A stretch of 64,000 bases of DNA from Patescibacteria group bacterium. GTDB taxonomy: Bacteria > Patescibacteriota > Minisyncoccia > Phycocordibacterales > UBA9973. The stretch spans positions 28,450 to 92,449 of the forward strand of contig JAZJXT010000002.1 in assembly GCA_040390725.1 (NCBI GenBank), given 5' to 3'. Positions within the stretch are counted from its first letter, which is position 1, and each line of letters opens with the position of its first letter. The notes beneath the pieces were generated by a model. It had not been told where the DNA came from. It did no database searches and worked only from the letters and a program-made list of their open reading frames with translations. Positions 9,601 through 57,343 of the stretch are shown piece after piece. A program made the position numbers and the translations under genes.

Positions 9601-11094
9601 ATGAATAATAATTTTCAAAAACTTTTAACTTCCGGGATCATTGTTTCATTATTTTTTGTTTTTTTTGGTTTTTATAATTCCGTCAGCTCGAGCGCCATTG
9701 GACGAGGCTCGGGATATGCTTGGTCTGCCAATGATGGTGACGGCATGGGGTGGCTTTCTTTTAATTGTACTTCGGGTGGAAATTGCGGTGATACAAACTA
9801 TGAAGTTACCGCAGATAGAACCACTGGTGATATGACTGGGTATGCTTGGTCTCCTAATTACGGTTGGATTAAATTTGGAGGTTTGTCAGGCTTCCCGACG
9901 GGCGGAGGCACTACTCCTGCCAATGCAAAGCTTGATTATCATACCGGCATCATGACGGGTTGGGCTAGGTTTTGTTCGGTGGCTGCGACTCCTTCACTTT
10001 GTTCAGGATGGCCTGGAACCAATAATACTAATGGAGGATGGGATGGCTGGGTGAGTTTGAATGGTACTGGATATGGAGTCAGCAAGTCAGGTACTAATTT
10101 TACAGGTTTTGCTTGGGGTGGGGCTGATGTTGTCGGCTGGATTGATTTTTCAAATGTTTCTATACGTTATCCTCACAGTCCTGCTTCGGATCCTTTTGTT
10201 ATTTTGACTGTTAATAATCAGACGAATACTGAAGCAGACCCAGTCTTGGTTAATTCCGGAGAGCCATTTGTGTTGAGGTGGGATAGTGAAAATTCTAGTT
10301 CTTGTAATGGTGATTGGACTACTGATGCATTGACTATGCCGGCAGGGTCAGCGATATTGTCAGTAATTACAGACAAGCCTTTACCGAAAACTTACACCAT
10401 TTCTTGTGTTGGACAATCTGGAACCACTGATAGTGTTGTCAATGTCAGTATTGTGCCTTCTGACGTTGTGAATGCTGTTCCAAAACTTAATTTTTACTCT
10501 TCTCCTAATAATTACGTTCTTCTTCCAAATACTAAAACGACCTTGAAGTGGAATTCAAACGTTGCTATGGCTTGTAAGGCAGATAATGCTATTCAAAATA
10601 TTCGATCATCTTCCTCATGGTCTGGTAATGTAGGTGATTTATCTGCTTCGAATTCTTTCCAAAATTCTCTTGTAGTTGATGTTCCAGACAATACTCCATC
10701 TACCGAATATGGCATAGTTTGTACTGATGAAAGTGGTGCAGAATTTAAAAAGCAGGTTTATGTTTCTCAACAATTCCCTCCTGAAGGATTTAATATCGGA
10801 TATGATGCAGTGGATCCAACATCACATACCACCATGCTTCGCTTGAAAGATATCTTTAATCTTACTAGCAGTGATTGTACTACTACGGCATCCGTAGTAG
10901 GTACTGGATGGGATGGCACCATAAAGAGTGATGGTTCTGAGGTAAAGACTGTGACTGTTCCTGGAAGTGGCGCGACTTATACAGCTACATGTACTGGGTT
11001 GAATTCCGGGCTTCCTGTCATTAGATTTATTTCCTTGAAACAAGACAGTACCGCCGGCTCAACACAAATATCACCTTCATATATTGAACATTAA
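9601..11094 (+). CDS. secreted/membrane-anchored repeat protein (497 aa) with GYAWS...GWI.F repeats
   Basis: Signal anchor LLTSGIIVSLFFVFFGFY. Repeated GYAWSANDGDGMGWLSF / GYAWSPNYGWIKFGG / GFAWGGADVVGWIDFS units. Cys-rich C-terminal half. Confidence 0.55.
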   Translation: MNNNFQKLLTSGIIVSLFFVFFGFYNSVSSSAIGRGSGYAWSANDGDGMGWLSFNCTSGGNCGDTNYEVTADRTTGDMTGYAWSPNYGWIKFGGLSGFPTGGGTTPANAKLDYHTGIMTGWARFCSVAATPSLCSGWPGTNNTNGGWDGWVSLNGTGYGVSKSGTNFTGFAWGGADVVGWIDFSNVSIRYPHSPASDPFVILTVNNQTNTEADPVLVNSGEPFVLRWDSENSSSCNGDWTTDALTMPAGSAILSVITDKPLPKTYTISCVGQSGTTDSVVNVSIVPSDVVNAVPKLNFYSSPNNYVLLPNTKTTLKWNSNVAMACKADNAIQNIRSSSSWSGNVGDLSASNSFQNSLVVDVPDNTPSTEYGIVCTDESGAEFKKQVYVSQQFPPEGFNIGYDAVDPTSHTTMLRLKDIFNLTSSDCTTTASVVGTGWDGTIKSDGSEVKTVTVPGSGATYTATCTGLNSGLPVIRFISLKQDSTAGSTQISPSYIEH

Positions 11095-11186
11095 AAATAG
11101 CATGGTATACTTATTATTATAAAAATAAAATTATTATCAAAAAATTATTAGCCCCGACGCAAGTCGATTAAAATATTAAAAAAATT

Positions 11187-14100
11187 ATGAGTCACAAAAT
11201 AAAAACAGCTTTAAAATCAATATTCGTTCTCTCTATGGTCGTGTTGTCAGCGCATGCTTTTGCAGTATGGACACCGCCACCAGCAGGGATACCTCCAGCC
11301 AACAATACTACGGCTCCTGTGAATGTGGGTTCTGTGACTCAATATAAAACCGGTGGGCTCGTCGTCGGAGGTTTTCGTTCTACTGGGCCTGCATTTTTTG
11401 ATGATACTGTGCAATTCAAACAGGTGACGACTTTGCCTGATTGTACTGCGACTGATTCTAGCGGTAATTTTATATACAAAGGGGCACAAATATACTACAA
11501 CGGCAGTATGGAATTTTGTAATGGAGTTACTTGGTCAGTAGTAGGCACCAAAGATTGGCTGACTACAGCAATGGGCAATATTTACTATACAAATGCCGGC
11601 AATGTAGGTATCGGTACGCAAACTCCAGCTACCAAACTCGACGTAGTGGGAACCATTACATCAACTGGCTTGAATGTCGTAGGCAATACGGCGACAACTG
11701 GTTTGACTACGGGTGCAACTGGGCTCACAGTTAGCGGACCACTTTCTATTCCTGACGGTGCATCAGCAGGGAAGGTTTTGACTTCTGATGCTGCTGGTAC
11801 TGCAACATGGCAAGGCTTAATTGCATCTTGGAGTCTTTCTGGCTCTAGTCTTTTCCCTACAGATTTTGCAAATGACAATGTCGGCATCGGCACTGATAGT
11901 CCTGCTGAACGCTTGCAAGTCAGTGGAGGTAATATTTTGACAGATAATAAATGGGCATTTGAAGCTAAAAATGCTTCGGGTGTAAAAGAGGCTTGGATGT
12001 GGCCTAGATATACTGATAATGTAATGTACACTAATTATGGTGCAAATGGTTGGAATATTCGCGACAACGGTGGAGCTCCTGTTATGTTTATGGACAAGAA
12101 TGATAATGTTGGCTTAGGTAATATTCTTCCAACTAATAAACTTTCTGTGACCGGGAATGCGGACTTCTCGGGTAATGTTGGGATAGGAACAAAAACTCCA
12201 AGCGCTCAGCTTTCTGTACTTGGTAATATTGCGATAGTAAGAGATCCAGGTTTTACAAATTACTCCCCAGGATCATCTTTGTCTCTTGAGTCTTGGAGTG
12301 ATGGAACTTCCACTAGTCATGATGATGATGTAGGGGCACAAGTTAGCGCTGCTGATTGGCTGGCTGGTACTGATGGTGCTCCGGGCACAGATAAAATTGT
12401 AAAGTATGCTTGTCCTTCCGGTAGTGGTGGTAGTACTTATCATAATGATTATTACAGAATTGACCTCGGTTCAGGAGCTTATGATTATCGAAAAATCAGT
12501 GATGTTTTTTGTGTTGCCGGTACAGATAAATTCTCTTTGAGAACCGACAGAGGCAATTTGCAATTTTTAGATACTAATTCTAATCCTAAATTTATTATGA
12601 CTCAGTCAGGTAATGTCGGTATCGGCGTCACTGCTCCTGCTGTAAAGCTTGACGTAAACGGCGCAGTAAAATTCGGCGATGATACTACGATTGTTTGTGA
12701 TACCACTCATCCGCAAAACGCAGGAATACAGAGATATGACAAAGTAGATAATATAATGAAAGCTTGTAACGGCACCACATGGATAGCTGTCGGAGCAAAT
12801 GCTGCACCTTCATCTTCACTCTGGTCTGCAGGTACGGGTGATGATGTTTTCAAAACACTAAATACTGGCAATACTGGTATCGGAACCCAAACTCCAGCAG
12901 CAAAATTGCATTTGAGCGGAGGTAATTTCTTGATGGATAATAGCGCGACTTTGCAAGCTTACAATCACGCTGTGCCGGCGATGATTAATGATTGGATGTG
13001 GCCTAGATACCATGATCCTGTTTCCGGTACTGACATCATGTACACTAATTTTGATGTAAATGGATGGAGCATTCGCAACAATACTGCGCACCCTGTGATG
13101 TTTATGAAAGACAATGGCAATGTCGGTATCAACACAATAAACCCGGTAAACAAGCTTTCAGTTAACGGAGATGTTAATATCGGTGATTCTATAATTCCTG
13201 GAAAGCTCGGTATAAATACCACGACTCCTACTTCTTCTTTGGATGTAAATGGAGACATCACTGCTTCTAGGGGTGTTTCACTTGTGAATAGTTCAGCGCT
13301 TAGTTTTTATTCTGGCACAAAGGGAACAAGTGTATATGAGCTTCCATATTTGCCTGCGACGGGCAATGATACTTGTGGCACTTTAAATTCTGATACTGAT
13401 GGTGATGGCAGTGTTGTTCCAAACAACGATCGTGTCATGTGTGATGGTTTAATTTCAGGACCTAGATGTTATGATCGTGTTCATCAAAGCACTGGAGATG
13501 TGGGCGCTTATGTGACATGTGTGGCTGATGCGGGTACTTATACTATTGCAAACAATACTAATAATTTACAATTTTCAAATGGCACAGGCACTAATGCGGG
13601 TGTCAGAGTCACTTTAGATAAAGACGGCAAGATGGGCGTGGGTACGACGATTCCACAGGCAAAACTCGACGTCAACGGCGGAATTAAATTCGGTTTAGAT
13701 GGCTTGGCTACGGATACTATTTGTACTGTTGCCGGTGTGCAGAGGTACAATGGTGCTATGCAATATTGTGATGGAACAAATTGGGTTCCTGTCGGGTCTC
13801 CTATGTTTTGGAATGTTATCGGTACGGGTTCTGACCTCGCTACTATAAATACTGGTAATGTCGGCATCGGTACGGGCACGAATCCTCCATTAGCAAAGCT
13901 TGATGTAAATGGTGCAGTTAAATTCGGTGATCAAACTGTTGTAAAAGATATTACTACTCCAAATTCAAATGTGCCGGGCTTTCCAAATGTCACTTGTAAT
14001 GTAGCCGGTACCCAGAGATACAATTCTGTTTCTGCAAAGATGGAATCTTGCGATGGTCATTATTGGTCAAGCGTTGGAGATAAATCTCTTTGGAATGCTG

Positions 14101-17100
14101 ACACGACTGGTGTCATGGTTTCTTTGGCTACTCCTGGACAAAAAGTCGGTATCGGCACAGCTACTCCTCATTCTGCTCTCGAAGTTGTCGGTAATTTACA
14201 AATCACAAGCCCTATCAGTGGTCCTAGTTCCAACAGTATAATTTTAGGAAGTGGAAAGTATGACAATTATGGTGGATGGCCTCTTATTCCAATGCTGACA
14301 ACTTCTGGTGATCCATTACCAGCAGACCCTGGATCAAGTGCGGATACTTGTGACAGTAATGAAAATGCTGTATATAGTTGTCCGGATAGTGTTACAAAGA
14401 ATTGTACAGATGTTACTTCGGGTACATTTAAGTCTTCCACTAGTAGTGCTCCTAGGGACGCATGGTATAAGCGAGATGTGTCTTGTGTTTCTCCTGATGA
14501 GCCTTTATATCAAATACAAAATAATTCTGGGGATTTGAAATTCATAAATAATAATGGTCCGCAAGTTACAGTTAATCAAAATGGCAATGTCGGCATAGGC
14601 ACTACCACTGCTCCGGGTGCAAAACTCGATGTAAACGGTGGCATCAAATTCGGCCTTGATGGTTTGGCTACGGATACTACTTGTACTGTTGCCGGTGTGC
14701 AGAGATATAATCCTGCTAATTCAAATGGAATGCAATTTTGTGATGGCTCACACTGGAAAGATGTCGGTTCTCCTGCTACATGGAATGAAGTTGCTGGTGT
14801 GCTTTCTCCATTTACTCTGACAGATAAAATCAGTATTGGTAATGTTGCTCCTTTTGAAATAGATCCAGGCAATGTTTCTTCAAATTCCTCAAATGCTGGA
14901 TTCCTTCGTTTTGGTGATAATTCTGGATGGAAATTCCATTTTGGAAGAGCTAAAGAATCCACTTCTTCCGGTTTCAATACTGACACTACCGGTTCTATTA
15001 TGACGATGCAAGACAATGGCAATGTGGGTATTGGTACTACATCTCCGAAGGCAAAATTTGAAGTTGCAGGAAATAGTGGAGATGACTTAATTAACATTAG
15101 AAATCTTTCTACCAGTCAGCCAAATGCAACTTCTTGGGCATTGCGTCCGGTTACAAATAGTAAGACTGCTTATGCTACAGATTTGCAATTCTTCGAACAC
15201 GGACTAGACGGAGCTAGAGTTACCTTCCAAGGTAATGGTGGAAATGTAGGTATCGGTACGACAAATCCTACCGCTAGGCTCGATGTTGCCGGAGCAGTTA
15301 AATTCGGTGATGAGCACGTAGTTACTACTTGTGATTCTACTACGAATGGTACACAAAGGTATAATAGTTCTGGAGTAATGCAATGGTGTAATGGTGTAAA
15401 CTGGCAGAGTTATGGTAGTGGTGTGGGCTGGATAGCTAATGGCAATGATATTTATAATGGTAACAATGCTGGAAATGTAGGGATAGGCACCGGAGCAACT
15501 CCTGTAAAAAATAAACTTTTTGTTAATGGTGATGTTGGTACTTCTGCTTCTATTATTAGTGGCGGTATGATGTATTTGCAAGGCAATGATTATGAACATT
15601 TAGGTAATTTGAAATATGTCAGCCAAGGAATCTTTCTCGGAGGAGATGGATTGAGTCATGGAGATATTTCATGGCTTCCAAATTCCAATACCCTTAACCT
15701 AGGTACAGGTGATGATCCTACAAAGGCAGCTAATTATCCTGATCAATATGGCCCTGTAAATCTTTCCTTGGGTGGACAAATCAGAATCGGTGGCTCTACT
15801 GCGGTTTTTGATTACAATGGACACAGTGTTACTACTGTCCCTCATCCTCCTACGAAGGGGCAAGTTTTGACAGCGTTAGATTCTACCGGTCTTGCTTCTT
15901 GGCAAGCACCCCAAGCTGGCCCTTGGTCAGTTGTAGGTGATGATATTTCAAATTCAAATACCGGAATGGTTAAAGTGAATGGTTCAATAGCTACAATATT
16001 GGGATTAAATAATAATGCGAACATCAGCCAGTATGATTTGGGAGCAAACAAGATTGGTGCCGCTACTTCTATTTATTCTTATGGACGCATTTGTGCCGGA
16101 AATAATTGGGGAACTTGTGACAGTGCTACTCAGTCCGGTGTAGTTATAGAATCTTCCGGTCAAGGTAAATTTGGAGCCGTTGATATTTCTGGGAATGGGC
16201 CGTCATACTTTGCTGCCGGGAATCTCGGAGTAGGCACAAATTCTCCTAACGCTAAACTTGATGTGAGCGGTGATGTGCAGGTTTCAGATGGTGTTTCTGT
16301 GGTAGATAGCTCAGCGGTTAGTTTTTATTCCGGTGATAAACATATCAACTCTCATACGGATTGGACTAATAAAAGTTCAAATAGTGCGACGCGTACCCCT
16401 GATACTTGTCCTGGTGCTGATACAAAACTTAAATTTGAGTGTATAGGTTCTAATACTGTGAATTCTTGTACAGACACCGCTGATTATCAGGAATATACTT
16501 CCGGACAACTTACCTTTGATGGTTGGGCAACTCGCACAGTTTCTTGTGTGGCTACTACCGGTGTTTATTCTGTAAAGAATAATAATAGCACTTTGCAATT
16601 CTTGAATGATAAAGGCACTGCTAAGTTAACTTTGGATCAAAATGGCAATTTGGGTGTAGGTGGCAATGTTAGTCTAGGGGCTGGCGGTAGTCTTCTTCAG
16701 ACTTCACCATTATACTTACTCGGTGATGCTAATGGATATACTGCTCTTAATTTAGACCCTAGCCAGTACGCCAGCCAGGGTATTCGTTTCGGAGGAGATG
16801 GAAAATCTCACGGAGACATGGCATGGATTCCAGGCTTAAATACATTTTATCTTGGAACAGGAGATAATCCGCAAGATATGCTCACAGGTGTTCCAAATAG
16901 ATACGGTCCGGCTAATCTTACTTTGGCGGGTGCTCTATCTATCGGCGGGCAAATTACAATTGCCGGCGGTTCCCCTGGTGCCGGAAAAGTTTTGACATCA
17001 GACAGTACAGGTAAGGCGACTTGGCAACAGCTCCCTCCTTCATCTGTATCTCCTTGGCTAGTAGGAACGAATCCAAACACACATAATACTACTATTAGTA

Positions 17101-17372
17101 CTGCGGCTAATACTGAAGTTACAGTAAATGGAAATTTGACAATTGCTAATGGCGCTAATGGGGTCCTTACTACTTCGGGAGATATTAACGCTGGTCAGAA
17201 TTTAAATGTTGCAGGAAGTTTAATTTTACTAAAAAAGTGTTACACTAATGATAAAAAAACTACTTTTACTAATTTCTATGGTACTAGTACCCCGAATCTA
17301 TATGGTAGAGCACTTTTTTTAAATGGAGATGGCAGTATTTACCCACAGCATGTAGATGGTTGTGATAACTAA
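11187..17372 (+). CDS. giant secreted tail-fibre-like repeat protein (2061 aa)
   Basis: Signal peptide (LKSIFVLSMVVLSAHAFA). At least 15 'GNVGIGT.TP.AKLDVNG' units. About six copies of the C...G.QRYN...C.G..W..VG module. Large internal duplications (WMWPRY...VMFM twice; GDG.SHGD..W.P..NT..LGTGD..YGP.NL twice; G.VLTSD..G.A.WQ three times). Confidence 0.7.
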   Translation: MSHKIKTALKSIFVLSMVVLSAHAFAVWTPPPAGIPPANNTTAPVNVGSVTQYKTGGLVVGGFRSTGPAFFDDTVQFKQVTTLPDCTATDSSGNFIYKGAQIYYNGSMEFCNGVTWSVVGTKDWLTTAMGNIYYTNAGNVGIGTQTPATKLDVVGTITSTGLNVVGNTATTGLTTGATGLTVSGPLSIPDGASAGKVLTSDAAGTATWQGLIASWSLSGSSLFPTDFANDNVGIGTDSPAERLQVSGGNILTDNKWAFEAKNASGVKEAWMWPRYTDNVMYTNYGANGWNIRDNGGAPVMFMDKNDNVGLGNILPTNKLSVTGNADFSGNVGIGTKTPSAQLSVLGNIAIVRDPGFTNYSPGSSLSLESWSDGTSTSHDDDVGAQVSAADWLAGTDGAPGTDKIVKYACPSGSGGSTYHNDYYRIDLGSGAYDYRKISDVFCVAGTDKFSLRTDRGNLQFLDTNSNPKFIMTQSGNVGIGVTAPAVKLDVNGAVKFGDDTTIVCDTTHPQNAGIQRYDKVDNIMKACNGTTWIAVGANAAPSSSLWSAGTGDDVFKTLNTGNTGIGTQTPAAKLHLSGGNFLMDNSATLQAYNHAVPAMINDWMWPRYHDPVSGTDIMYTNFDVNGWSIRNNTAHPVMFMKDNGNVGINTINPVNKLSVNGDVNIGDSIIPGKLGINTTTPTSSLDVNGDITASRGVSLVNSSALSFYSGTKGTSVYELPYLPATGNDTCGTLNSDTDGDGSVVPNNDRVMCDGLISGPRCYDRVHQSTGDVGAYVTCVADAGTYTIANNTNNLQFSNGTGTNAGVRVTLDKDGKMGVGTTIPQAKLDVNGGIKFGLDGLATDTICTVAGVQRYNGAMQYCDGTNWVPVGSPMFWNVIGTGSDLATINTGNVGIGTGTNPPLAKLDVNGAVKFGDQTVVKDITTPNSNVPGFPNVTCNVAGTQRYNSVSAKMESCDGHYWSSVGDKSLWNADTTGVMVSLATPGQKVGIGTATPHSALEVVGNLQITSPISGPSSNSIILGSGKYDNYGGWPLIPMLTTSGDPLPADPGSSADTCDSNENAVYSCPDSVTKNCTDVTSGTFKSSTSSAPRDAWYKRDVSCVSPDEPLYQIQNNSGDLKFINNNGPQVTVNQNGNVGIGTTTAPGAKLDVNGGIKFGLDGLATDTTCTVAGVQRYNPANSNGMQFCDGSHWKDVGSPATWNEVAGVLSPFTLTDKISIGNVAPFEIDPGNVSSNSSNAGFLRFGDNSGWKFHFGRAKESTSSGFNTDTTGSIMTMQDNGNVGIGTTSPKAKFEVAGNSGDDLINIRNLSTSQPNATSWALRPVTNSKTAYATDLQFFEHGLDGARVTFQGNGGNVGIGTTNPTARLDVAGAVKFGDEHVVTTCDSTTNGTQRYNSSGVMQWCNGVNWQSYGSGVGWIANGNDIYNGNNAGNVGIGTGATPVKNKLFVNGDVGTSASIISGGMMYLQGNDYEHLGNLKYVSQGIFLGGDGLSHGDISWLPNSNTLNLGTGDDPTKAANYPDQYGPVNLSLGGQIRIGGSTAVFDYNGHSVTTVPHPPTKGQVLTALDSTGLASWQAPQAGPWSVVGDDISNSNTGMVKVNGSIATILGLNNNANISQYDLGANKIGAATSIYSYGRICAGNNWGTCDSATQSGVVIESSGQGKFGAVDISGNGPSYFAAGNLGVGTNSPNAKLDVSGDVQVSDGVSVVDSSAVSFYSGDKHINSHTDWTNKSSNSATRTPDTCPGADTKLKFECIGSNTVNSCTDTADYQEYTSGQLTFDGWATRTVSCVATTGVYSVKNNNSTLQFLNDKGTAKLTLDQNGNLGVGGNVSLGAGGSLLQTSPLYLLGDANGYTALNLDPSQYASQGIRFGGDGKSHGDMAWIPGLNTFYLGTGDNPQDMLTGVPNRYGPANLTLAGALSIGGQITIAGGSPGAGKVLTSDSTGKATWQQLPPSSVSPWLVGTNPNTHNTTISTAANTEVTVNGNLTIANGANGVLTTSGDINAGQNLNVAGSLILLKKCYTNDKKTTFTNFYGTSTPNLYGRALFLNGDGSIYPQHVDGCDN

Positions 17373-17420
17373 TTAGCAAGTAGCTCGTAAGGATTTTTCT
17401 TACGCTTGTGTTGTTCTTAC

Positions 17421-17449
17421 AAAAAAATCCCCATGACGGGGATTTTTTT
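17421..17449 (+). terminator. rho-independent terminator after the giant gene
   Basis: aaaaaaatcccc atgac ggggattttttt: perfect stem flanked by an A-run and a T-run (bidirectional). Confidence 0.6.
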
Positions 17450-17463
17450 GGTATAATAAGTGT
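17449..17463 (+). promoter_or_regulatory. extended -10 (TGgTATAAT) abutting the pilB start codon; a leaderless or near-leaderless pilB mRNA is possible
   Basis: tataat at 17452-17457 with TG at 17449-17450; ATG at 17464. Confidence 0.3.
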
Positions 17464-19215
17464 ATGCAAGTAAATGAAGATCAGTTAAAAAAATTTATTT
17501 TGGAAGCAGGGCTTGTGACGCGGACGGATTTGGAAGAAGTCGCAGAGAAAGAGGTAAAGACAAATCAAAAATTTGGCAATATTTTATTGTCAGAAGGAAA
17601 AATTTCTGAAACAGATTTAAAAAGAATGGAAGCTTTGGTTTTAGGAATTCCATTTGTGAATTTGGCAAATGAAAAAATAGATTTTTCTGTTATATCTTTG
17701 GTTCCCGAACCTATCGCTCGCAATCACAATATTATTGCTTATAAAAAAAGTGACAAGGGTCTCGAGGTTGCGATGTTTGATGTGGATGATTTACCTGTGA
17801 TTGATTTCGTAAAGAAACATTCCGGTTTGAAAATATTGCCTAGGCTTACTGATAGTTCTTCTATCAAAACTGCTTTGGCGCAATACGGCAAAACTTTGCA
17901 AATGGAATTTGATGATATTATTCAAAAAGAAAATTCTTCTTTCAAGAAAATAAATGAGATAGAAGATGGTGAGAAATCAGAAAAAGAATTAAAAGAAATG
18001 GCGGAAGATTTGCCTGTGGTAAAAATAGTCGATTCTTTGATTTCTCATGCCATATTGCAGAATGCTTCCGACGTGCATATCGAGCCGGGGGAAAATAATC
18101 TCGTTGTGCGATACCGAATAGACGGTATATTGCATGATGCTATGACTTTGACAAAAAGTGCGGCTAGCGGGGTCACCGCTAGAATAAAAGTTTTAGCCAA
18201 TTTGAAACTAGACGAAAAAAGATTACCTCAAGATGGCAGATTTAAAATAGAAAAAAATGGAGATAAAGTTTCCTTTCGTGTTTCCACCTTGCCGACTTTT
18301 TATGGAGAGAAAACTGTTATTAGAATTTTGAAAGAAGGCGCACATGGATTTTCTTTGGAAGGCCTCGGTTTTCACGGTGAAGGATTGGAGAGGATTCACA
18401 ATTCTTTGAAACAAAGAATAGGTATGGTATTGGCTACGGGCCCTACGGGCTCGGGTAAAACAACAACTCTCTATACGATGCTCGATATTTTAAACAGGCC
18501 GGAAGTGAATATTTCCACCGTTGAAGATCCTATCGAATATCAAATGCCGAGAGTAAATCAAACGCAAGTAAAACCGGAAATAGGAATGACTTTTGCAAAT
18601 GGCTTGCGCAGTTTATTGCGACAAGATCCTGATATAATAATGGTGGGGGAGATACGTGACGGAGAAACTGCCGGACTCGCAGTGAATGCATCTCTTACCG
18701 GGCACTTGGTTCTTTCTACAATCCACACGAATTCTGCTGCGGGTGCGATACCGAGACTTATAGACATGGGAATATTACCATTTTTGATAATTTCTACGGT
18801 AAAAACAATCATAGCTCAGAGGTTGGTGCGTCAGCTTACAGCAAATAAAGAAAAATATTTTTTATCTGCGGATGAAATAAAAAATTTGGCAAAAATTATA
18901 GATTTGGACAGGATGCTCCAAATGTTAAAAAATGAAAAAGTCGTAGGAGTGAAAGACACTTGGGAGAAAATTCCTTTTTATAAAGCAGTACCGAGCAGTG
19001 AAACACCTGACGGGTATTCAAATCGTATAGGTATTCACGAAGTTTTAAAAATGTCTCTGGCTATAAAAGAAATAATTACTCGCGGAGGAAGCCAAGACGA
19101 GATAGAGAAACAAGCAAAAGAAGAAGGCATGATGACAATATTAGAAGATGGAGTTTTCCAGTCAGTCTTGGGCAATACGACACTGGAAGAAGTATTTAGA
19201 GTTGTTTCAGAATAA
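17464..19215 (+). CDS. pilB: type IV pilus assembly ATPase PilB/GspE
   Basis: GspE_N-like N-terminus; Walker A GPTGSGKTTTLY; Asp and His boxes. Confidence 0.9.
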   Translation: MQVNEDQLKKFILEAGLVTRTDLEEVAEKEVKTNQKFGNILLSEGKISETDLKRMEALVLGIPFVNLANEKIDFSVISLVPEPIARNHNIIAYKKSDKGLEVAMFDVDDLPVIDFVKKHSGLKILPRLTDSSSIKTALAQYGKTLQMEFDDIIQKENSSFKKINEIEDGEKSEKELKEMAEDLPVVKIVDSLISHAILQNASDVHIEPGENNLVVRYRIDGILHDAMTLTKSAASGVTARIKVLANLKLDEKRLPQDGRFKIEKNGDKVSFRVSTLPTFYGEKTVIRILKEGAHGFSLEGLGFHGEGLERIHNSLKQRIGMVLATGPTGSGKTTTLYTMLDILNRPEVNISTVEDPIEYQMPRVNQTQVKPEIGMTFANGLRSLLRQDPDIIMVGEIRDGETAGLAVNASLTGHLVLSTIHTNSAAGAIPRLIDMGILPFLIISTVKTIIAQRLVRQLTANKEKYFLSADEIKNLAKIIDLDRMLQMLKNEKVVGVKDTWEKIPFYKAVPSSETPDGYSNRIGIHEVLKMSLAIKEIITRGGSQDEIEKQAKEEGMMTILEDGVFQSVLGNTTLEEVFRVVSE

Positions 19216-23210: not shown

Positions 23211-23975
23211 ATGAAGAAGATAGTTATAGGCAATTGGAAAATGAATCCGCTTTCTAGTAAAGAAGCGGAGAAAATTTTTTCCGGTATTGTTAAAAATTTA
23301 AAAGTTAAAAAAACAGAGGTGGTTATTTGCCCGCCGTTTTTGTATTTGGAAAAGCTGGGGAAAATTTCAAAGAAAGTTTCCTTGGGAGCACAGAATGCTT
23401 TTACAGAAGATGGTGGTGCGTACACTGGGGAAGTTTCTGTAAAAATGCTCGCGAATATGGGTGTGAAGTATGTGATATTAGGACATTCAGAAAGGCGCAG
23501 TCCGCCGGCCGGCGGAGGGGAATCTAATCAAGATGTAAATAAAAAAATAAAAGCATCACTATCTGTTGGGCTTATTCCGGTAGTTTGTATTGGAGAAAAA
23601 GAACGGGATGAAAATCACGAGTATTTGAATTTTGTGCGTGAACAAGTCGAGCAAGGTTTTACAGGAATTTCCAAGAATTTAATTTCAAATATTATTATTG
23701 CTTATGAGCCTGTATGGGCTATCGGCAAGAATGCAAAGAGAGAGGCGTCTCCTGCGGAGTTTCGCGAGATGAGTATTTTTATCAGGAAAATTTTGTCTGA
23801 TAAATTTGGCGCAAAAAATATTGAAAAAATCAGAATTATTTACGGTGGTTCCGCGCATCCGGAAAATGTTGCTGGATTTTTAGCAGAAGGCGCGGATGGT
23901 TTTTTGCCAGGCAGGGATAGTTTGGATCCGAAGAAGTTTTTATCAATTGTTAATACAACAGAAAGTATCTTTTAA
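23211..23975 (+). CDS. tpiA: triosephosphate isomerase
   Basis: IGNWKMN, ILGHSERR and AYEPVWAIG motifs. Confidence 0.9.
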   Translation: MKKIVIGNWKMNPLSSKEAEKIFSGIVKNLKVKKTEVVICPPFLYLEKLGKISKKVSLGAQNAFTEDGGAYTGEVSVKMLANMGVKYVILGHSERRSPPAGGGESNQDVNKKIKASLSVGLIPVVCIGEKERDENHEYLNFVREQVEQGFTGISKNLISNIIIAYEPVWAIGKNAKREASPAEFREMSIFIRKILSDKFGAKNIEKIRIIYGGSAHPENVAGFLAEGADGFLPGRDSLDPKKFLSIVNTTESIF

Positions 23976-24069: not shown

Positions 24070-25218
24070 ATGAATAGTATAAAAAGTTTAAAAAACATAA
24101 AAGGTAAAAAAGTTCTTGTGAGAGTTGATTTCAATGTGCCTGTTTTGAACGGTAAGGTGGAAGACGATTTCCGAATACAAAAAGCATTGCCAACAATTAA
24201 ATTTTTACAGAAAAAAGGCGCGAAAGTTATTTTAATAACGCACTTGGGTAAAGGCGGGGAAACTCTTTTGCCGGTGGAAAAAGTTTTGAATAAATATGTA
24301 AAAGCTGTTTTTGTGGCTGATATTGTGGGAGAAAAAGCAGAAAATGCTGTGGATGCTATGAAAAATGGTGATGTAATTTTGTTAGAAAATTTACGTAATA
24401 ATGACGGCGAGAAAAATTGTGATAAAACTTTTGCGAAAAGTTTGGCAAAATTCGGGGATATTTATGTGAATGAAGCCTTTCCTGTGTCACACAGAGCTGA
24501 TGCTTCTATTGTTTTGTTGCCGAAGCTTTTGCCGGCGTATGCGGGTTTGCAGTTAGAAAATGAAGTGAAAAATCTTTCGAAAGTTTCCAAGAGCGTAAAG
24601 CATCCATTTCTTTTTATTTTAGGCGGTGCGAAATTTTCTACCAAGATGCCTTTGATTAAAAAATATTTAAAAACTGCGGACAATATTTTTGTTGGCGGAG
24701 CATTAGCGAATGATTTTTTGAAAGCGAAGGGTTATGAAGTTGGCAAATCTTTGACGGACAATGGTGATTTTGGAATTAAGAAATTTATAAATAATAAAAA
24801 ACTTATTTTACCGGTGGATGCTGTAGTCACCTCACCCCAGCCCTCTCCTTATAAAGGAGAGGGGGAATTCGTAAATAAAAAAGCAAGTGAAGTAAAAAAA
24901 GATGAAATTATTTTAGATGTCGGCAGTGAATCAGTAAAAAATTTAGCACCGATTATTAAAAAAGCAAAAATGATTCTCTGGAATGGGCCTTTGGGAAAAT
25001 ATGAAGAAAAAGAATGCAGAGCGACAAAAGAAGTTTTGAAAATGGTGATGAATTCAAAAGCTCAAGTGACTATAGGTGGCGGAGACATAGTCGCTGTTTT
25101 ATCTCAAATGAAAATTAATACTGACAAAAGAAAAAATTTATTTGTATCTACTGGCGGAGGAGCAACTCTCGACTTTCTTGCTAATGGCACCTTGCCAGGA
25201 ATTAAAGCGTTAAAATAA
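24070..25218 (+). CDS. pgk: phosphoglycerate kinase
   Basis: VLVRVDFNVP and ILWNGPLG motifs. Start moved to the ATG at 24070 (MNSIKSLKNIKGKKVLVRVDFNVP). Contains the in-frame palindromic insert at 24828-24865. Confidence 0.9.
   Translation: MNSIKSLKNIKGKKVLVRVDFNVPVLNGKVEDDFRIQKALPTIKFLQKKGAKVILITHLGKGGETLLPVEKVLNKYVKAVFVADIVGEKAENAVDAMKNGDVILLENLRNNDGEKNCDKTFAKSLAKFGDIYVNEAFPVSHRADASIVLLPKLLPAYAGLQLENEVKNLSKVSKSVKHPFLFILGGAKFSTKMPLIKKYLKTADNIFVGGALANDFLKAKGYEVGKSLTDNGDFGIKKFINNKKLILPVDAVVTSPQPSPYKGEGEFVNKKASEVKKDEIILDVGSESVKNLAPIIKKAKMILWNGPLGKYEEKECRATKEVLKMVMNSKAQVTIGGGDIVAVLSQMKINTDKRKNLFVSTGGGATLDFLANGTLPGIKALK
24828..24865 (+). repeat. RPE-like palindromic element, copy 1 (in-frame within pgk; encodes TSPQPSPYKGEGE)
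   Basis: cacctcaccccagccctctccttataaaggagaggggg; core is a perfect 10-bp inverted repeat ccctctcctt/aaggagaggg. Identical reverse-complement copy at 62919-62955 and a 2-mismatch copy at 57294-57329. Confidence 0.6.
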
Positions 25219-26978: not shown

Positions 26979-28727
26979 ATGCAACAAAGTGAGTTATTGA
27001 TGAAATTATTAGAAAAAAGAGGCATAACTATCCCTGCCGAAATTGAGAAATTTTTAAACTCCAGCTACGAGAGCGATATGCACGACCCTTTTTTAATGCG
27101 CGATATGGAAAAAGCTTGCGTGCGGATTTTTGAGGCGATGGAAGCCAAAGAAAAAATACTGGTTTATGCGGATTATGATTGCGATGGCATTCCGGGCGCG
27201 GTTATTTTAAATGATTTTTTTAATAAATTAAATTATCAAAACTTTGAGGTGTATATTCCGCAGAGGAATTCCGAGGGATATGGTTTGAATTTGGAAGCGG
27301 TAAAAAAAATGGATGAGGATAGGGTGAAACTTTTGATTACTATTGATTTAGGTATCACAGCCGTGGCGGAAATAGCTCAAGCGGAAGTGTATGGCATAGA
27401 CGTGATAATTACTGACCACCATATTCCTCATGAAGTATTGCCGAGGGCTTATGCTATTTTGAATCCAAAAGTTGATAACTATCCGGAGAAAATGTTGTGC
27501 GGGTCTGGGGTTGTTTTTAAATTAGTGCAAGGGTTTTTGAAAAAGTATGGCGATTACTATCGCGGGGGCGGAGTTTATAATTTTTTGCCTGCGGAACTCG
27601 CCTCCGCTTCGCTACAGCTCAAACAGTCCTCGTCTGCAAAATTACAAACTCCGCCCCCGCGAGACTGGGAGAAATGGCTTCTCGATATGGCAGGGCTCGC
27701 TACACTTTCTGATATGGTGCCGTTATTGGGTGAGAACAGGGCGATTGCGAGTTTTGGAATAAAAGTTTTTAGGAAATCTCCGCGTCCGGGTTTGCAAAAA
27801 CTTTTAGCGAAAATGAATATAGAGCAGAAATATATTTCGGAAGACGATATAGGTTTTATGGTAACGCCACGACTCAATGCAGCATCAAGAATGGATGATC
27901 CGCGTCGAGCTTTTGAATTACTGGCTACGCAAGATGAAACGGAAGCCGGAGTATTGGCAAACCATTTGACGAAAATAAATGATGACAGGAAAAAAATCGT
28001 TGCGGGGATAATGAAAGATGTAAATAAAAAATTCGACAAAAGAGAAATAAAAAATGTGATAGTGATAGGGCATCCGGAGTGGCGGGTCGGGGTTCTCGGT
28101 TTGGTTGCGGGGAAAATTTGTGATGAACATAAAAAGCCGGTTTTCGTGTGGGGGAAAGATGAAAATGATTGCATTAAAGGCTCGTGTCGTTCTGACGGTT
28201 CTGTATCTGTGGTGGAACTTATGACGGAAACAAAAGAATATTTCTTGGATTTCGGCGGACACGAAGGCGCAGGAGGTTTTACTGTGCACAGTGAAAAAAT
28301 ACATTTCTTGGAAGAAAATTTATCTCAATCTTTTCAAAAAATTATAGAGAAAACTATAGTTAAAGAAAAAGTATCGCTTCCAGGCTTTGATGTTAAATTA
28401 AATTTAGGTGATGTAAATATGAAAAATTGGAAAGAGATAGAAAAAATGGCGCCATTTGGTTGTGAAAATCCAAAACCAGTTTTTCTTTTTGAAAATGTAA
28501 AAATAGAAAAATTAAAAAAATTTGGAAAAAACAATTCACAAGAACATTTGGAGATTATTTTTTCTGATGCTACAGGTAAAGCTAAAGCGATTGCATTTTT
28601 CTCCGGCTTGGAATCTTTCAAAAAATCATTAGCCGAAAATTTAAATGTAAACTTATTGGCAACTTTTGATTTATCCCGTTTCCTAAGGAGAGAAGAGCTA
28701 AGATTAAGAATTGTTGATATTTTTTAA
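26979..28727 (+). CDS. recJ: single-stranded-DNA-specific exonuclease RecJ
   Basis: DHH motifs (YADYDCDGI, ITDHH) and DHHA1 region (GGHEGAGG). Contains a 102-bp in-frame palindromic insert at 27561-27662. Confidence 0.9.
   Translation: MQQSELLMKLLEKRGITIPAEIEKFLNSSYESDMHDPFLMRDMEKACVRIFEAMEAKEKILVYADYDCDGIPGAVILNDFFNKLNYQNFEVYIPQRNSEGYGLNLEAVKKMDEDRVKLLITIDLGITAVAEIAQAEVYGIDVIITDHHIPHEVLPRAYAILNPKVDNYPEKMLCGSGVVFKLVQGFLKKYGDYYRGGGVYNFLPAELASASLQLKQSSSAKLQTPPPRDWEKWLLDMAGLATLSDMVPLLGENRAIASFGIKVFRKSPRPGLQKLLAKMNIEQKYISEDDIGFMVTPRLNAASRMDDPRRAFELLATQDETEAGVLANHLTKINDDRKKIVAGIMKDVNKKFDKREIKNVIVIGHPEWRVGVLGLVAGKICDEHKKPVFVWGKDENDCIKGSCRSDGSVSVVELMTETKEYFLDFGGHEGAGGFTVHSEKIHFLEENLSQSFQKIIEKTIVKEKVSLPGFDVKLNLGDVNMKNWKEIEKMAPFGCENPKPVFLFENVKIEKLKKFGKNNSQEHLEIIFSDATGKAKAIAFFSGLESFKKSLAENLNVNLLATFDLSRFLRREELRLRIVDIF
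27561..27662 (+). repeat. 102-bp element with 20-bp terminal inverted repeats inserted in-frame in recJ
   Basis: cgcgggggcggagtttataa (27561-27580) vs ttacaaactccgcccccgcg (27643-27662): 19/20 complementary. 102 bp = 34 codons, encoding RGGGVYNFLPAELASASLQLKQSSSAKLQTPPPR. Confidence 0.55.
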
Positions 28728-37604: not shown

Positions 37605-39230
37605 ATGACTCAAGCAGAAGCACTGAATATTTTGAAGACGGGGGCGAATGTTTTTTTGACTGGGGAACCTGGTGCGGGGAAAAGTTATACGATAAATTCT
37701 TTTGTGGAATATTTGCGCGAGAGGGATATAGAGCCGGCGATAACAGCGAGCACGGGAATAGCCGCGACGCATATAGGCGGGATGACTATACATTCTTGGA
37801 GCGGTATAGGCATCAGGAAAAAACTCGATCAATATGATTTGGATAAAATAGCGAGCAGTGAATATATTGCGCGCAGGGTGCGGAGGACGCGCGTTTTGAT
37901 AATTGATGAAATTTCAATGCTGACGGCGGACATGCTCGATATGATAGACGCGGTGTGTAGGGAAGTGAAACAAAGCTCCGAGCCTTTCGGCGGAATGCAG
38001 ATAGTTTTGGTGGGAGATTTTTTCCAACTTCCGCCGATTGTGAAAAATGATACGGACGAAAAACAAAAAACTCTTTTAGTGGAAAAGAAGAAGAGCGTTT
38101 TTGCTTATGATTCAAATGCTTGGGCTCGGGCGGGACTGGTAATGTGCTATCTGACGGAACAACACAGGCAGGATGACAAAGATTTCTTGGATTTTCTTTC
38201 CGCTATTCGCGCGGATAAAATAAATGACGAGCATATGGAATACGTGACGGCGCGACAGACTATTTTAGACGATGTGCCGGATAATGTGACGAAATTATTC
38301 ACGCATAATTTTAATGTGGACACGGTGAATAATATGGAATTGGAAAAAATTACGGAAGAGAAAAGAAAATTCGAAATGATTTCCGAAGGACGCGACGCAT
38401 TGGTGATGGCATTGAAAAAAGGATGCCTCTCGCCGGAGAATTTGGAACTCAAAATAGGCGCGGTGGTGATGTGCACGAAAAATAATCAAAAAGAAGGATA
38501 TGTGAACGGCACATTGGGCATAGTGGAAGATTTTGACGAATTCACCGGCTATCCGATAATTAAAAAAAGAAATGGCAAAAGTATAAATGTTTCTCCGCTT
38601 GACTGGGTGGTGGAAGAAAATGGAAAAATTTTGGCGATGATTTCGCAAGTGCCTTTGCGCCTGGCATGGGCGATGACGGTGCATAAAAGCCAAGGGATGT
38701 CGCTCGATGCGGCTATTATGGATTTGTCGCAAGTCTTTGAATACGGGCAGGGGTATGTGGCGCTCTCTCGCGTGCGCAGGCTTTCCGGACTTTATCTTCT
38801 CGGCATAAATGAGCGTGCATTCAAAGTGCATCCGGAAATTTTAGAAAAAGATATTTTCTTTAAAGAGCAATCAGCCGAAGCGGTAAAAGTCTTCGGCAAA
38901 CTTTCCGAAAGTGAACTTCAAAAAATGCATGATAATTTTGTGTTGGCTAGTGGAGGGGAAGTAAAGATAGAGTATAAAAGAGAAGAGCAGATGCGCGCGC
39001 CGAGTACGGCGCGCGCCCTGGATAATTCTGAAAGTTCTCCAGTTAAACCTTTTGAAAAAATAAGAGAACAACACCCCAATGCTTATCGTCCTTGGGATAA
39101 AATACAAGACGAAGAATTAGAAAAATTATTCAGCGAAGGAGTACCAACAGCTGACCTTATGAAAAAATTTGGCAGGAAAAAAGGAGGAATAACTGCCAGA
39201 CTTGAAAAACTTGGTTTAGTTAAATCATGA
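37605..39230 (+). CDS. PIF1/RecD-family ATP-dependent DNA helicase with C-terminal HTH-like tail
   Basis: Walker A GEPGAGKSY, ASTGIAA, DEISML, and the PIF1 signature region. Confidence 0.8.
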   Translation: MTQAEALNILKTGANVFLTGEPGAGKSYTINSFVEYLRERDIEPAITASTGIAATHIGGMTIHSWSGIGIRKKLDQYDLDKIASSEYIARRVRRTRVLIIDEISMLTADMLDMIDAVCREVKQSSEPFGGMQIVLVGDFFQLPPIVKNDTDEKQKTLLVEKKKSVFAYDSNAWARAGLVMCYLTEQHRQDDKDFLDFLSAIRADKINDEHMEYVTARQTILDDVPDNVTKLFTHNFNVDTVNNMELEKITEEKRKFEMISEGRDALVMALKKGCLSPENLELKIGAVVMCTKNNQKEGYVNGTLGIVEDFDEFTGYPIIKKRNGKSINVSPLDWVVEENGKILAMISQVPLRLAWAMTVHKSQGMSLDAAIMDLSQVFEYGQGYVALSRVRRLSGLYLLGINERAFKVHPEILEKDIFFKEQSAEAVKVFGKLSESELQKMHDNFVLASGGEVKIEYKREEQMRAPSTARALDNSESSPVKPFEKIREQHPNAYRPWDKIQDEELEKLFSEGVPTADLMKKFGRKKGGITARLEKLGLVKS

Positions 39231-54757: not shown

Positions 54758-55834
54758 ATGCATGAGAATGGAAAAATGACTACTGTTTCTGTCAGCACCA
54801 ACACCATGATCCGGGCTGTTTTGGTCGGATTGGGATTTTTTCTCATATACTTATTGAGAGATTTGGTTTTGGTTATTTTGACTTCTATCGTCATAGCTTC
54901 ATTTGTGGAGTCTGCTGTTCCAAAGTTTAAAAAAATAGGATTAGGGCGCGTATCCGGAGTTTTTCTTTTGTATCTTATTTCTCTTTTGATTTTGGCTGCC
55001 CTGTTTTATCTTTTTGCCCCGCTTCTCATCACTGAGTTATATAATTTCTCAACATTGCTTTCGTCTTATCTTCCAGATTCCAATTTGCTGAATTTTTTCC
55101 AAAATGACGCTTTTTCCGGGGCTAAAAATATAGTGACGAGTCTTTCACATAATTTTTCTTTAGAGACATTATTGGCGACTTCAAAAGCCTTTGTCGCAAA
55201 CTTGGCCGGTGGATTTTTCCAAACTCTTTCTTCTGCCTTTGGAAGTATTTTTAATGTGACGATGATTATTGTTATTTCTTTTTATCTTTCGATTCAAGAA
55301 AAGGGTATAGAAAACTTTTTGCATATTGTTGTGCCACCAAAACATGAAAATTATGCCGTGGATTTATGGGAACGTTCTCGAAGAAAAATCGCGCTCTGGA
55401 TAAAAGGACAAATGTTATTGGGTCTTCTTATCGCTATTTTAATATATTTATTGCTTTCACTTTTAGGCATATCATACGCGCTTTTGTTGGCTTTACTTAC
55501 CGGCATGATGGAGCTCGTGCCTTATGGGATGCTGATAGCCATGGTCCCGGCGGTCGGCCTCGGATATTTATCAGGAGGATTTACGGGTTCATTTATGGTT
55601 TTAGGCGCATACCTTATTATTCATCAATTTGAAGTTTATTTATTATCTCCTTTGATTGTCAGAAAGGTGACAGGGCTTTCTCCGCTCGTGGTTATACTTG
55701 CGGTGCTCATTGGTTTTGACTTGGCGGGGTTTTGGGGGCTTATTCTTGCTATTCCTTCCGCTGTAGTTATTATGGAATTTTTAAATGATGTTGAAAAAGA
55801 CAAACTTTTTGCCCGTATTAGCCATGAAAAATAG
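54758..55834 (+). CDS. AI-2E family transporter (PerM/UPF0118)
   Basis: Eight predicted TMs with an AI-2E-like pattern. Start uncertain (ATG 54758 or 54776; the ORF track uses TTG 54740). Confidence 0.7.
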   Translation: MHENGKMTTVSVSTNTMIRAVLVGLGFFLIYLLRDLVLVILTSIVIASFVESAVPKFKKIGLGRVSGVFLLYLISLLILAALFYLFAPLLITELYNFSTLLSSYLPDSNLLNFFQNDAFSGAKNIVTSLSHNFSLETLLATSKAFVANLAGGFFQTLSSAFGSIFNVTMIIVISFYLSIQEKGIENFLHIVVPPKHENYAVDLWERSRRKIALWIKGQMLLGLLIAILIYLLLSLLGISYALLLALLTGMMELVPYGMLIAMVPAVGLGYLSGGFTGSFMVLGAYLIIHQFEVYLLSPLIVRKVTGLSPLVVILAVLIGFDLAGFWGLILAIPSAVVIMEFLNDVEKDKLFARISHEK

Positions 55835-57290: not shown

Positions 57291-57293
57291 GAA

Positions 57294-57329
57294 CCTCACC
57301 CCAACCCTCTCCTTATTAAGGAGAGGGGG
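57294..57329 (+). repeat. RPE-like palindromic element, copy 2 (intergenic, metG-tatD)
   Basis: cctcaccccaaccctctccttattaaggagaggggg; 2 mismatches to copies 1 and 3; perfect 10-bp stem. Confidence 0.55.
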
Positions 57330-57343
57330 AGGAAGAAAAGATT

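Follow-up and report, generated by a model that had tools for sequence, protein, structure and literature searches.

We analysed a 64,000-nucleotide (nt) stretch of DNA, here called the window, from contig JAZJXT010000002.1 of a Patescibacteria group bacterium, a member of the candidate phyla radiation (CPR) with a genome of 37% GC. The window contains three copies of a short hairpin element, two of which lie inside the genes for phosphoglycerate kinase (pgk; 24070-25218, +; 382 residues from the ATG at 24070) and dihydrofolate reductase (folA; 62695-63243, -; 182 residues). The nearest relatives of both proteins, PGK and DHFR, are found in Nomurabacteria, Paceibacteria and Patescibacteria. 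Copy 1, the 36-mer CCTCACCCCAGCCCTCTCCTTATAAAGGAGAGGGGG, lies in pgk on the + strand (24830-24865), and copy 3, its exact reverse complement, lies in folA on the - strand (62919-62954). Copy 2 has 2 mismatches to the 36-mer and is intergenic (57294-57329, +), located between metG (55785-57290, +) and an open reading frame (ORF) for a tatD-like hydrolase that was named by eye from its sequence (57344-58222, +). Aligning the flanks gave full units of 38 nt (24829-24866, +, in pgk; 57293-57330, +, intergenic; 62918-62955, -, in folA) with the consensus ACCTCACCCCA[G/A]CCCTCTCCTTAT[A/T]AAGGAGAGGGGGA, beyond which the three copies have no flank similarity. Copy 2 thus starts 3 nt 3′ of the stop codon of metG (57288-57290), and its last base lies 14 nt 5′ of the tatD ATG (57344). 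The pgk and folA copies are identical at 38/38 nt, with spacer, loop and tail included.

On the + strand, copy 1 consists of a third block A-CCTCACCC (24829-24837), a spacer CAG (24838-24840), a pyrimidine arm CCCTCTCC-TT (24841-24850), a loop ATA (24851-24853), a purine arm AA-GGAGAGGG (24854-24863) and a tail GGA (24864-24866) that is common to the copies. Copy 2 has the spacer CAA and the loop-region variant TTATTAA. The reverse complement of the element is CCCTCTCC-TTTATAA-GGAGAGGG-CTG-GGGTGAGG, and the oligonucleotide sequence of its G-rich strand is CCCTCTCCTTTATAAGGAGAGGGCTGGGGTGAGGT. The arms pair without mismatch over 10 bp as an inverted repeat and enclose a loop of 3 nt, and the RNA hairpin of the element has a predicted energy of about -17 to -18 kcal/mol. 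An earlier note on this DNA had reported the element in pgk, its reverse complement in folA, an intergenic copy with 2 mismatches and a perfect 10-bp inverted-repeat core; all were recovered where it had placed them. The loop is 3 nt, and the same pattern with a 4-nt loop has no match in the window.

The 36-mer pattern gave 0 matches in 100 dinucleotide-preserving shuffles of the window. A generic three-block scan of the window found exactly these three copies and gave 0 matches in 20 shuffles, half-site remnants of the motif were not found in the window, and Rfam covariance models at the gathering score gave 0 matches over its whole length. The same element also occurs in independent assemblies from many projects, where the reading frames are always open, and the window DHFR, insert included, has a 100% identical counterpart among deposited Patescibacteria proteins (P0121, on a 98.9-kb contig). 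The shuffles, the independent assemblies and the deposited protein speak against chance similarity and an assembly or chimera artefact, readings to which we give practically no credence.

Both coding copies are in sense orientation and in the same frame, and encode the 13-residue peptide TSPQPSPYKGEGE, which corresponds to PGK residues 254-266 and DHFR residues 97-109. Tryptic peptides that would span the junctions include ...VSTSPQPSPYK (DHFR) and LILPVDAVVTSPQPSPYK (PGK). In AlphaFold2 models for which alignments of orthologues were supplied, strands 250-254 and 267-271 of PGK form a beta-hairpin that has the insert at its tip, with a predicted local distance difference test score (pLDDT) below 50 at residues 258-263, and the DHFR insert is between helix 88-97 and strand 111-115, with a mean pLDDT of 56 over the block. 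Both inserts are therefore predicted to be surface-loop insertions, at the loop positions that the earlier note had proposed for a multi-copy mini-element set in frame into pgk and folA.

The two sites differ in how widely they are occupied. The pgk insert peptide is present in 0 of the 120 closest PGK orthologues (63-71% identity), which have a beta-turn of 4-5 residues (for example KSGDK) in place of the 13 residues of the window, so that the net gain at pgk is about 8 residues. At the folA site, about 18 of the 120 closest CPR DHFRs (55-64% identity) carry the motif peptide in the same loop, as variants of TSP[Q/L]PSP[Y/G/E][K/Q]GEG that differ only in residues encoded by the spacer and the loop. 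The expectation that the inserts are lineage-specific therefore holds for pgk and fails for folA. A few DHFR copies are degenerate (TSSYPLLQGEG and TSPQPPPFQGGG... types), and the peptide TSPSPLLEGEG of one DHFR (P0134) appears to be the same motif in a shifted frame, as judged from the peptide. DHFR loops of the type TPLAQ/TSLTE were considered as possible decayed motifs; the DNA of one example (L246) has no convincing relic. Motif carriers fall into about 9 clusters of a neighbour-joining tree of DHFR (about 160 residues), a number compatible with many losses or with repeated gains on a tree that is too weak to separate them. The intergenic copy is also shared: a syntenic contig (L269) with about 70% nucleotide identity has the element in the same metG-tatD spacer. 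The metG genes of this relative and of another (L161) contain an additional internal copy that the window metG lacks. With a lineage-specific pgk copy and folA and spacer copies common to relatives, the window appears to hold one young copy and two shared sites.

Other small indels were seen in the same proteins. A second one in folA, at residues 53-60 (63064-63087), reads KSPSGELG in the window and in a few orthologues and is missing from most; its counterparts include GRSPTGEPLG, GSGPNGEPG and GHSSTGELG, and a palindrome is not obvious. Loop inserts of the types SLPAGQAG, LPAQAG and PARYSG occur in other CPR DHFRs (P0123, P0138) and PGKs (P0011, P0024, P0043, P0060); together with the composite of L287 and L290 described below, they may point to a second family of hairpin inserts. 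On L246, a relative's contig, a diversity-generating retroelement (RVT_1 reverse transcriptase plus bAvd, 16051-17482) lies about 7 kb from the folA of that contig, and no link to the repeat was seen.

Relation to the BoxC/PIT/TMECO repeats

The element of the window has a counterpart in E. coli. The TMECO element, earlier called BoxC and then PIT for potential intrastrand triplex (Holder 2015, PMC4666352), is defined by three consecutive blocks, of which one is C-rich, the next is its G-rich complement and the last is again G-rich and mirrors the first G block; earlier work on these elements includes that of Bachellier in the 1990s and of Hoyne/Maher in 2000. The published pattern, CCCTCNCCC-N3-6-GGGNGAGGG-N3-GGGNGAGGG, has 9-nt stems with at most 1 mismatched triplet and finds 3610 copies in 262 proteobacterial genomes; the 23 copies of strain MG1655 are all intergenic, and the element forms a purine-motif intrastrand triplex in vitro (PMC4666352). 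All three window copies have this three-block architecture, with the blocks CCCTCTCC(T) / (A)GGAGAGGG / GGGTGAGG(T), so that the 5′ CCTCACCC is a third block of the element rather than part of its flank. The published pattern has 0 exact matches among them and exactly 3 mismatches to each, which are the three members of the ninth triad, changed from C/G/G to T/A/T. As all three fall in one triad, they would amount to one altered yet valid triplet and not to a mismatched one.

BLAST against complete E. coli genomes gave a 38-nt match with 89.5% identity in 2989 of 5426, and in the E. coli copy adjoining tauD, CCTCACCCCAGCCCTCTCC is identical at 19/19 nt to the 5′ part of the window element. Near-identical blocks (CCCTCTCC / GGAGAGGG / GGGTGAGG), a 3-nt second loop that is CTG or TTG as in E. 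coli types B and A, and a dispersed, multi-copy unit of 34-37 nt are all common to the two. On this sequence evidence the three copies are repeats of the BoxC/PIT/TMECO class, and the element is thus not undescribed. They depart from the published repeats in their ninth triad (T/A/T instead of C/G/G), through which the published 9-nt pattern misses them, in their 37%-GC CPR host, where the published survey covered 262 proteobacterial genomes, and in location, since 2/3 window copies are translated in frame while K-12 copies (23/23) are intergenic. Exclusively intergenic location, a trait of E. coli K-12 that lies outside the definition of the motif, is seen neither in the window nor in metagenome contigs.

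The class is found far beyond the Proteobacteria. A loosened pattern, CCTCACCC-N3-CCCTCTCC-loop-GGAGAGGG, matched at least 120 IMG/VR contigs of 35-73% GC, and a pattern with the T/A-extended stem matched at least 120 loci in species-representative genomes. The matches listed include Nitrospirota, Cyanobacteria (Nostoc, Rivularia and others), Armatimonadota, Bacteroidota/Ignavibacteria, Geobacterales, Rhodovibrio and Proteobacteria, as well as about 10 CPR lineages (Paceibacterota, Nomura-, Moran-, Uhr-, Falkow-, Gracili-, Sacchari-, Doudna-, Dojka- and Gottesmanbacteria). The same core occurs across many phyla and in phages. The remark in the earlier note that no description from CPR-like genomes was known to it has to be divided: the element itself is known from E. 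coli, and its presence in CPR is undescribed in the accessible literature, where searches for a CPR description, PIT elements and in-frame palindromes returned nothing past Holder 2015 and general reviews.

Covariation of the third block with the hairpin

If the third block belongs to the structure, its bases should follow those of the stem. We counted this in related sequences, at loci chosen for carrying the motif. In the IMG/VR sample, which is unbiased, the base 5′ of CCTCACCC is C in 106/108 copies whose ninth pair is C:G. Copies of the genome sample have T:A as their ninth pair, and the same base is A in 123 of them, T in 11 and C in only 2. Pooled, C occupies this position in 110/112 copies with a C:G pair and in 2/138 with a T:A pair (A or T in 136/138), and base -2, one further out from the third block, is free of constraint. 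This pattern is the one predicted by a purine-motif triplex on the G-rich strand, in which the triads are G*G:C and T*A:T or A*A:T. GC content was rejected as its cause: where the pair is C:G, the base remains C even at loci of low GC (7/7), and where the pair is T:A, it is mostly A or T even at loci of high GC.

Covariation extends to changes of several bases at once. In one KsgA orthologue (L279), the site that is canonical in two others (L259 and L261) reads ACCCCCTCC-caa-CCTCCCCC-ttattaa-GGGGGAGG, each block differing by three changes that are coordinated with those of the other two, so that every pair and triad is kept. Among 311 non-canonical pyrimidine/purine hairpins across all fetched loci, 103 have an upstream mirror block with at most 1 mismatch, against 11/311 at a control offset; these blocks comprise dozens of different sequences, and a T of the pyrimidine arm often corresponds to A in the third block. 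Comparison of the loci thereby shows covariation between hairpin and third block of the kind expected for a purine-motif triplex, and the description of the element as simply palindromic does not hold. The ninth triad, the L279 variant and the T-to-A correspondence, which fits T*A:T, lend indirect support to the predicted folding of the G-rich strand into a purine-motif triplex in vitro. About 45 nt upstream of the L279 variant lies a canonical copy in reverse orientation, followed by 10 nt and then by the forward variant element, where L259 and L261 have a single forward canonical copy; elements have apparently been replaced or stacked at the same site.

Nucleotide conservation and residence in genes

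We compared the codons of five DHFR genes with 54-64% amino acid identity, namely the window gene and four others (three obtained by protein look-ups and L189 by a genome scan). All synonymous positions inside the three blocks are identical across the five genes, and variation is limited to three places: the spacer of 3 nt (CAG, CTA or CAA), the loop, and the base that follows GGAGAGGG. Of the codons whose amino acid is invariant, 8/9 in the motif are identical in all five genes, compared to 7/50 in the rest of the gene (Fisher p = 2e-5), which places the constraint on the DNA or RNA and not on the peptide.

Residence in genes is common in CPR. The exact 38-mer occurs in 56 copies on 51 CPR-like metagenome contigs of 30-45% GC, with 37/56 copies well inside long ORFs and 19/56 intergenic or at ORF ends. 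The 37 genic copies are read in four frames: 20 in that of the window (f2, TSPQPSPYKGEG), 13 in f0 (PHPSPLLIKERG), 3 in f1 (LTPALSLLRRG) and 1 in r1. In the broader genome sample, genic copies at low-GC loci are found in f0, f2, r0 and r1, including some in cyanobacterial proteins of about 1800 residues. Since 3/6 frames of the element are open, two copies that share a frame are weak evidence alone. The shared orientation and frame that the earlier note had seen in pgk and folA is correct for these two copies, and as a hallmark it was discarded, given f0, f1, f2 and r1 in other hosts and r0 in the broader family. Orientation is a different matter, as 36/37 genic copies are in sense: with two open frames forward and one in reverse, 36:1 is a real bias (~6e-6 by our own arithmetic). 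The loop also follows the frame, with TTATAAA in f2, where TTATTAA would give a stop, and TTATTAA in f1, where TTATAAA would give a stop, as well as in most f0 copies. This correspondence, and the lack of stops in every genic copy, argues for read-through translation and not for bypass.

The hosts are diverse. By Pfam they include PNPase, UvrA, UvrB, UvrC, a class I aminoacyl-tRNA synthetase, an RluA-type pseudouridine synthase, MnmA, FemAB and MurB; KsgA and MetRS were recognised by eye. Diverged orthologues of PNPase (7 contigs), KsgA, UvrC and FemAB have the element at the same site, in a set that was selected for exact matches and is therefore no measure of conservation. Altogether, these data show that the blocks are conserved at the nucleotide level and that CPR copies are commonly open, in sense and in surface loops of housekeeping proteins. 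On L287 (4030-4200) and L290, in a FemAB-family gene, we also observed an in-frame composite of about 120 nt in which two copies, one canonical and one degenerate, are joined by a CCTGCC-GGTA-GGCAGG hairpin between the outer inverted repeats GAATTCACCTCA...GGATGAGGTGAATTC, with a predicted energy of -62 kcal/mol.

One explanation for a peptide that recurs in many proteins, and in the same DHFR loop of several species, would be that TSPxPSPxxGEG is itself under selection as a functional part of proteins, for instance as a flexible linker or a short linear motif. We consider this very improbable: the same DNA in at least 4 other frames encodes the unrelated peptides PHPSPLLIKERG, LTPALSLLRRG, PPLLNKERAGVR and PSPYQGEGWGEV, the synonymous sites are fixed, the P0134 motif appears to be read in a shifted frame (judging by its peptide), 1/3 window copies and 19/56 metagenome copies are intergenic or at ORF ends, and the inserts have low pLDDT in the AlphaFold2 models.

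The constancy of the blocks can also be read as purifying selection on a cis-signal that benefits the host, with multiplication being secondary. Such a signal could be a DNA structure that replication, repair or recombination makes use of, a site bound by a protein, or a hairpin of the mRNA that affects stability or the pace of translation at domain boundaries. Block conservation at synonymous sites among DHFRs of 54-64% identity is what this explanation expects, as are the sites filled alike in diverged PNPase, KsgA, UvrC and DHFR and in the metG-tatD spacer, the 36:1 sense-strand bias, the stable predicted RNA hairpin and a core that is identical from E. coli to CPR. Against these stand host genes that are functionally unrelated, orthologues that lack the element (102/120 for DHFR and 120/120 for PGK), and degenerate copies (TSSYPLLQGEG, TSPQPPPFQGGG...). 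In E. coli, moreover, the element has shown no promoter, terminator or polymerase effect and no triplex in vivo (Holder 2015, PMC4666352). A signal in RNA faces a further difficulty, as the T-to-A pattern of the third block does not fit a pyrimidine-motif RNA triplex; at the RNA level this leaves a plain hairpin, with the third block unexplained. On balance, we regard a beneficial cis-signal, the main rival of the reading favoured below, as possible and rather unlikely.

Mode of spread and comparison with other repeats

Copies within a locus resemble each other in the parts that are otherwise free to vary. The same 3-nt spacer is found in 46% of copy pairs within a locus compared to 15% between loci, and the same loop in 22% compared to 2.6%. 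Flanks are lineage-specific in Nostoc (agccttgtaaaa|motif|agcaagaatctt) and in Geobacter/Nitrospira, and tandem arrays or inverted doublets occur at three loci (L184, L130, L172). Some metagenome copies have a recurrent AATTCA 5′ flank and GGAATT 3′ flank, which hints at a larger subfamily or an AATT duplication; the window copies lack these flanks. Within the window, the pgk copy is identical to the folA copy, and orthologous folA copies of other genomes differ from the latter in spacer, loop and tail, as expected if the pgk copy was derived from, or converted by, a copy of the same genome.

With moderate confidence, we favour a joint reading in which the element is a pan-bacterial repeat of the BoxC/PIT/TMECO class that spreads in a structure-dependent manner, is read through in protein loops and encodes a passenger peptide. 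The unit on the G-rich strand, CCCTCTCC(T) - loop - (A)GGAGAGGG - N3 - GGGTGAGG(T), would form a hairpin followed by a mirror-image G/T/A block, and as single-stranded DNA the third block could lie on the purine arm with nine G*G:C, A*A:T or T*A:T triads. This folded single strand, hairpin plus third strand, would be the substrate of a copying or conversion process, and such structure-dependent multiplication or homogenisation would keep the three blocks constant while the 3-nt spacer and the loop drift. The common unit of about 36 nt is GC-rich and would have 2-3 stop-free frames. In gene-dense CPR genomes, sense copies that land in or replace a surface loop would be read through, and genic copies would survive only where their length leaves the reading frame intact, no stop interrupts that frame and the place of insertion is a loop. 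The result would be tolerated as a Pro/Ser/Gly-rich loop of 12-13 residues, the peptide itself being a passenger with no function.

Several points weigh against this reading. No target-site duplication, terminal repeat or mobilising enzyme was found at the three window copies, and the net gain at pgk of about 8 residues, not 12-13, means that an older turn was replaced or trimmed. Occupancy of the same site in diverged DHFR, PNPase, KsgA and UvrC, together with perfect blocks, could equally reflect purifying selection. As the covariation and hairpin counts come from related sequences and motif-selected loci, the p-values calculated from them are too extreme; which way the effect goes, and how large it is, is still clear. 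For the E. coli element, dimethyl sulphate footprinting detected no triplex in vivo, and earlier work, as summarised in the same paper, found no promoter, terminator or polymerase effect (PMC4666352). A related formulation is that one 36-nt element, kept near base-for-base from E. coli to CPR, cyanobacteria and phages, is actively maintained even in essential genes of minimal genomes, either by selection or by structure-guided copying or conversion that is independent of a transposase. We advance this statement, taken as a whole, as a tentative one that we doubt more than we believe.

The earlier note had likened the element to the Rickettsia palindromic elements (RPEs), which are about 105-146 nt long (Delihas 2011, PMC3184786) and were described as in-frame inserts in conserved ORFs by Ogata et al. 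2000, as cited by Delihas 2011 (PMC3184786). The behaviour is alike, both being repeated structured elements that sit in frame in conserved genes at sites compatible with the fold and have intergenic copies as well. They differ in that RPEs are restricted to Rickettsia and expected to be unrelated in sequence, where the present element spans phyla; in size and shape, with 36-38 nt, a 10-bp stem and three blocks here; and in the blocks, which here are under tighter nucleotide constraint than the host gene. The likeness is thus, in our analysis, one of behaviour and not of family membership, and of the earlier comparison the in-frame behaviour at permissive sites stands while RPE membership fails by size, and the motif matches another known family. 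A miniature transposable element of the RPE type, or of the inverted-repeat type called MITE, moved by a transposase that recognises terminal inverted repeats and inserted with target-site duplication, would account for in-frame insertion in loops of conserved proteins, for several near-identical copies and for subfamilies with lineage-specific flanks (AATTCA|element, Nostoc). Such an origin seems improbable to us for an asymmetric, three-block element of 36-38 nt rather than about 105-146 nt, whose window copies have neither terminal inverted repeats past the internal hairpin nor target duplications and which is found in many phyla rather than one genus.

The REP/REPIN elements, which RAYT transposases mobilise (Bertels & Rainey 2011, PMC3116915; Nunvar; Di Nocera 2013, PMC3733652), share several traits: a short, GC-rich hairpin of 20-40 nt that encodes nothing by itself, subfamilies specific to a genome, and inverted doublets now and then (L130 and L172 here, A+B pairs in E. 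coli). REPs are extragenic; they are marked at one end by a conserved GTAG or CGTC tag and are found together with a RAYT gene. The copies we examined are genic, and neither tag was found in their flanks. The third mirror block has no REP counterpart. Two further systems bear comparison. The GC clusters or 'byp' elements of yeast mitochondria, reportedly described by Lang and colleagues in 2014, are likewise GC-rich hairpin mini-elements spread through the coding regions of an AT-rich, reduced genome; ribosomes, however, skip byp elements, which can therefore contain stops, whereas the genic copies here are stop-free. Small dispersed repeats (SDRs) of cyanobacteria, which Elhai and colleagues are said to have described in 2008 as mobile-looking repeats of about 20-30 nt in Nostoc/Anabaena, reportedly also occur in genes; Nostoc loci in our sample have the motif with fixed flanks.

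Other palindromes and repeats occur in the window. A 103-nt palindrome at 27560-27662, with 25-nt arms that are 96% complementary (TCGCGGGGGCGGAGTTTATAATTTT ... AAAATTACAAACTCCGCCCCCGCGA), lies in frame in a RecJ-like DHH-family ORF (26979-28727, +), where it adds about 34 residues (RGGGVYNFLPAELASASLQLKQSSSAKLQTPPPR); in size and shape it is nearer to an RPE than the 38-nt element. In tpiA (23211-23975, +), which adjoins pgk, the GC-rich perfect palindrome TCCGCCGGCCGGCGGA (23497-23520) encodes SPPAGGG directly 3′ of the GHSERR signature of triosephosphate isomerase and may, from its sequence, be another small palindromic insert in a glycolytic gene. An all-GC hairpin of 9 bp, GCGCGCGCC-GAGTAC-GGCGCGCGC (38990-39018), lies in the C-terminal region of a helicase-like ORF (37605-39230, +; P-loop seen by eye) of this 37%-GC genome. 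Diverged internal repeats at 9900-17000, in nine families (D1-D9) with spacings from a few hundred to about 2700 nt and the motif AATGTCGGCATCGGCAC, suggest that at least one very large protein of repetitive make-up, of a surface or fibre-like kind, is encoded there. Over 1-64000 the cumulative GC skew increases with hardly a reversal, so the window is probably in one replichore, and no tRNA genes were found in its 64 kb.

In about 30 years, neither a function nor a way of spreading has been established for BoxC/PIT/TMECO repeats. What is new with respect to the accessible literature is their presence in CPR, their routine in-frame residence in essential genes and the comparative evidence for the third block; the motif itself was known, and the comparison to RPEs is a fair analogy of behaviour. 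Three facts can be tested further: third-block covariation across phyla, constancy at synonymous sites and routine sense translation in loops of essential enzymes of CPR bacteria. With them, comparative data can be brought to bear on the question of whether a non-B DNA structure is read in biology. They also bear on lineage-specific insertions in CPR proteins, which may confuse annotation, alignment and structure prediction, and suggest that such reduced, AT-rich genomes may quite generally carry palindromic inserts of high GC in their coding DNA. If the tentative statement above, of a 36-nt element that is actively maintained in essential genes, is true, the covariation would be the first evolutionary evidence that an intrastrand triplex, or a protein that reads the three-block shape, matters in vivo, and CPR genomes would be a natural system that routinely turns a non-B-DNA element into protein sequence.

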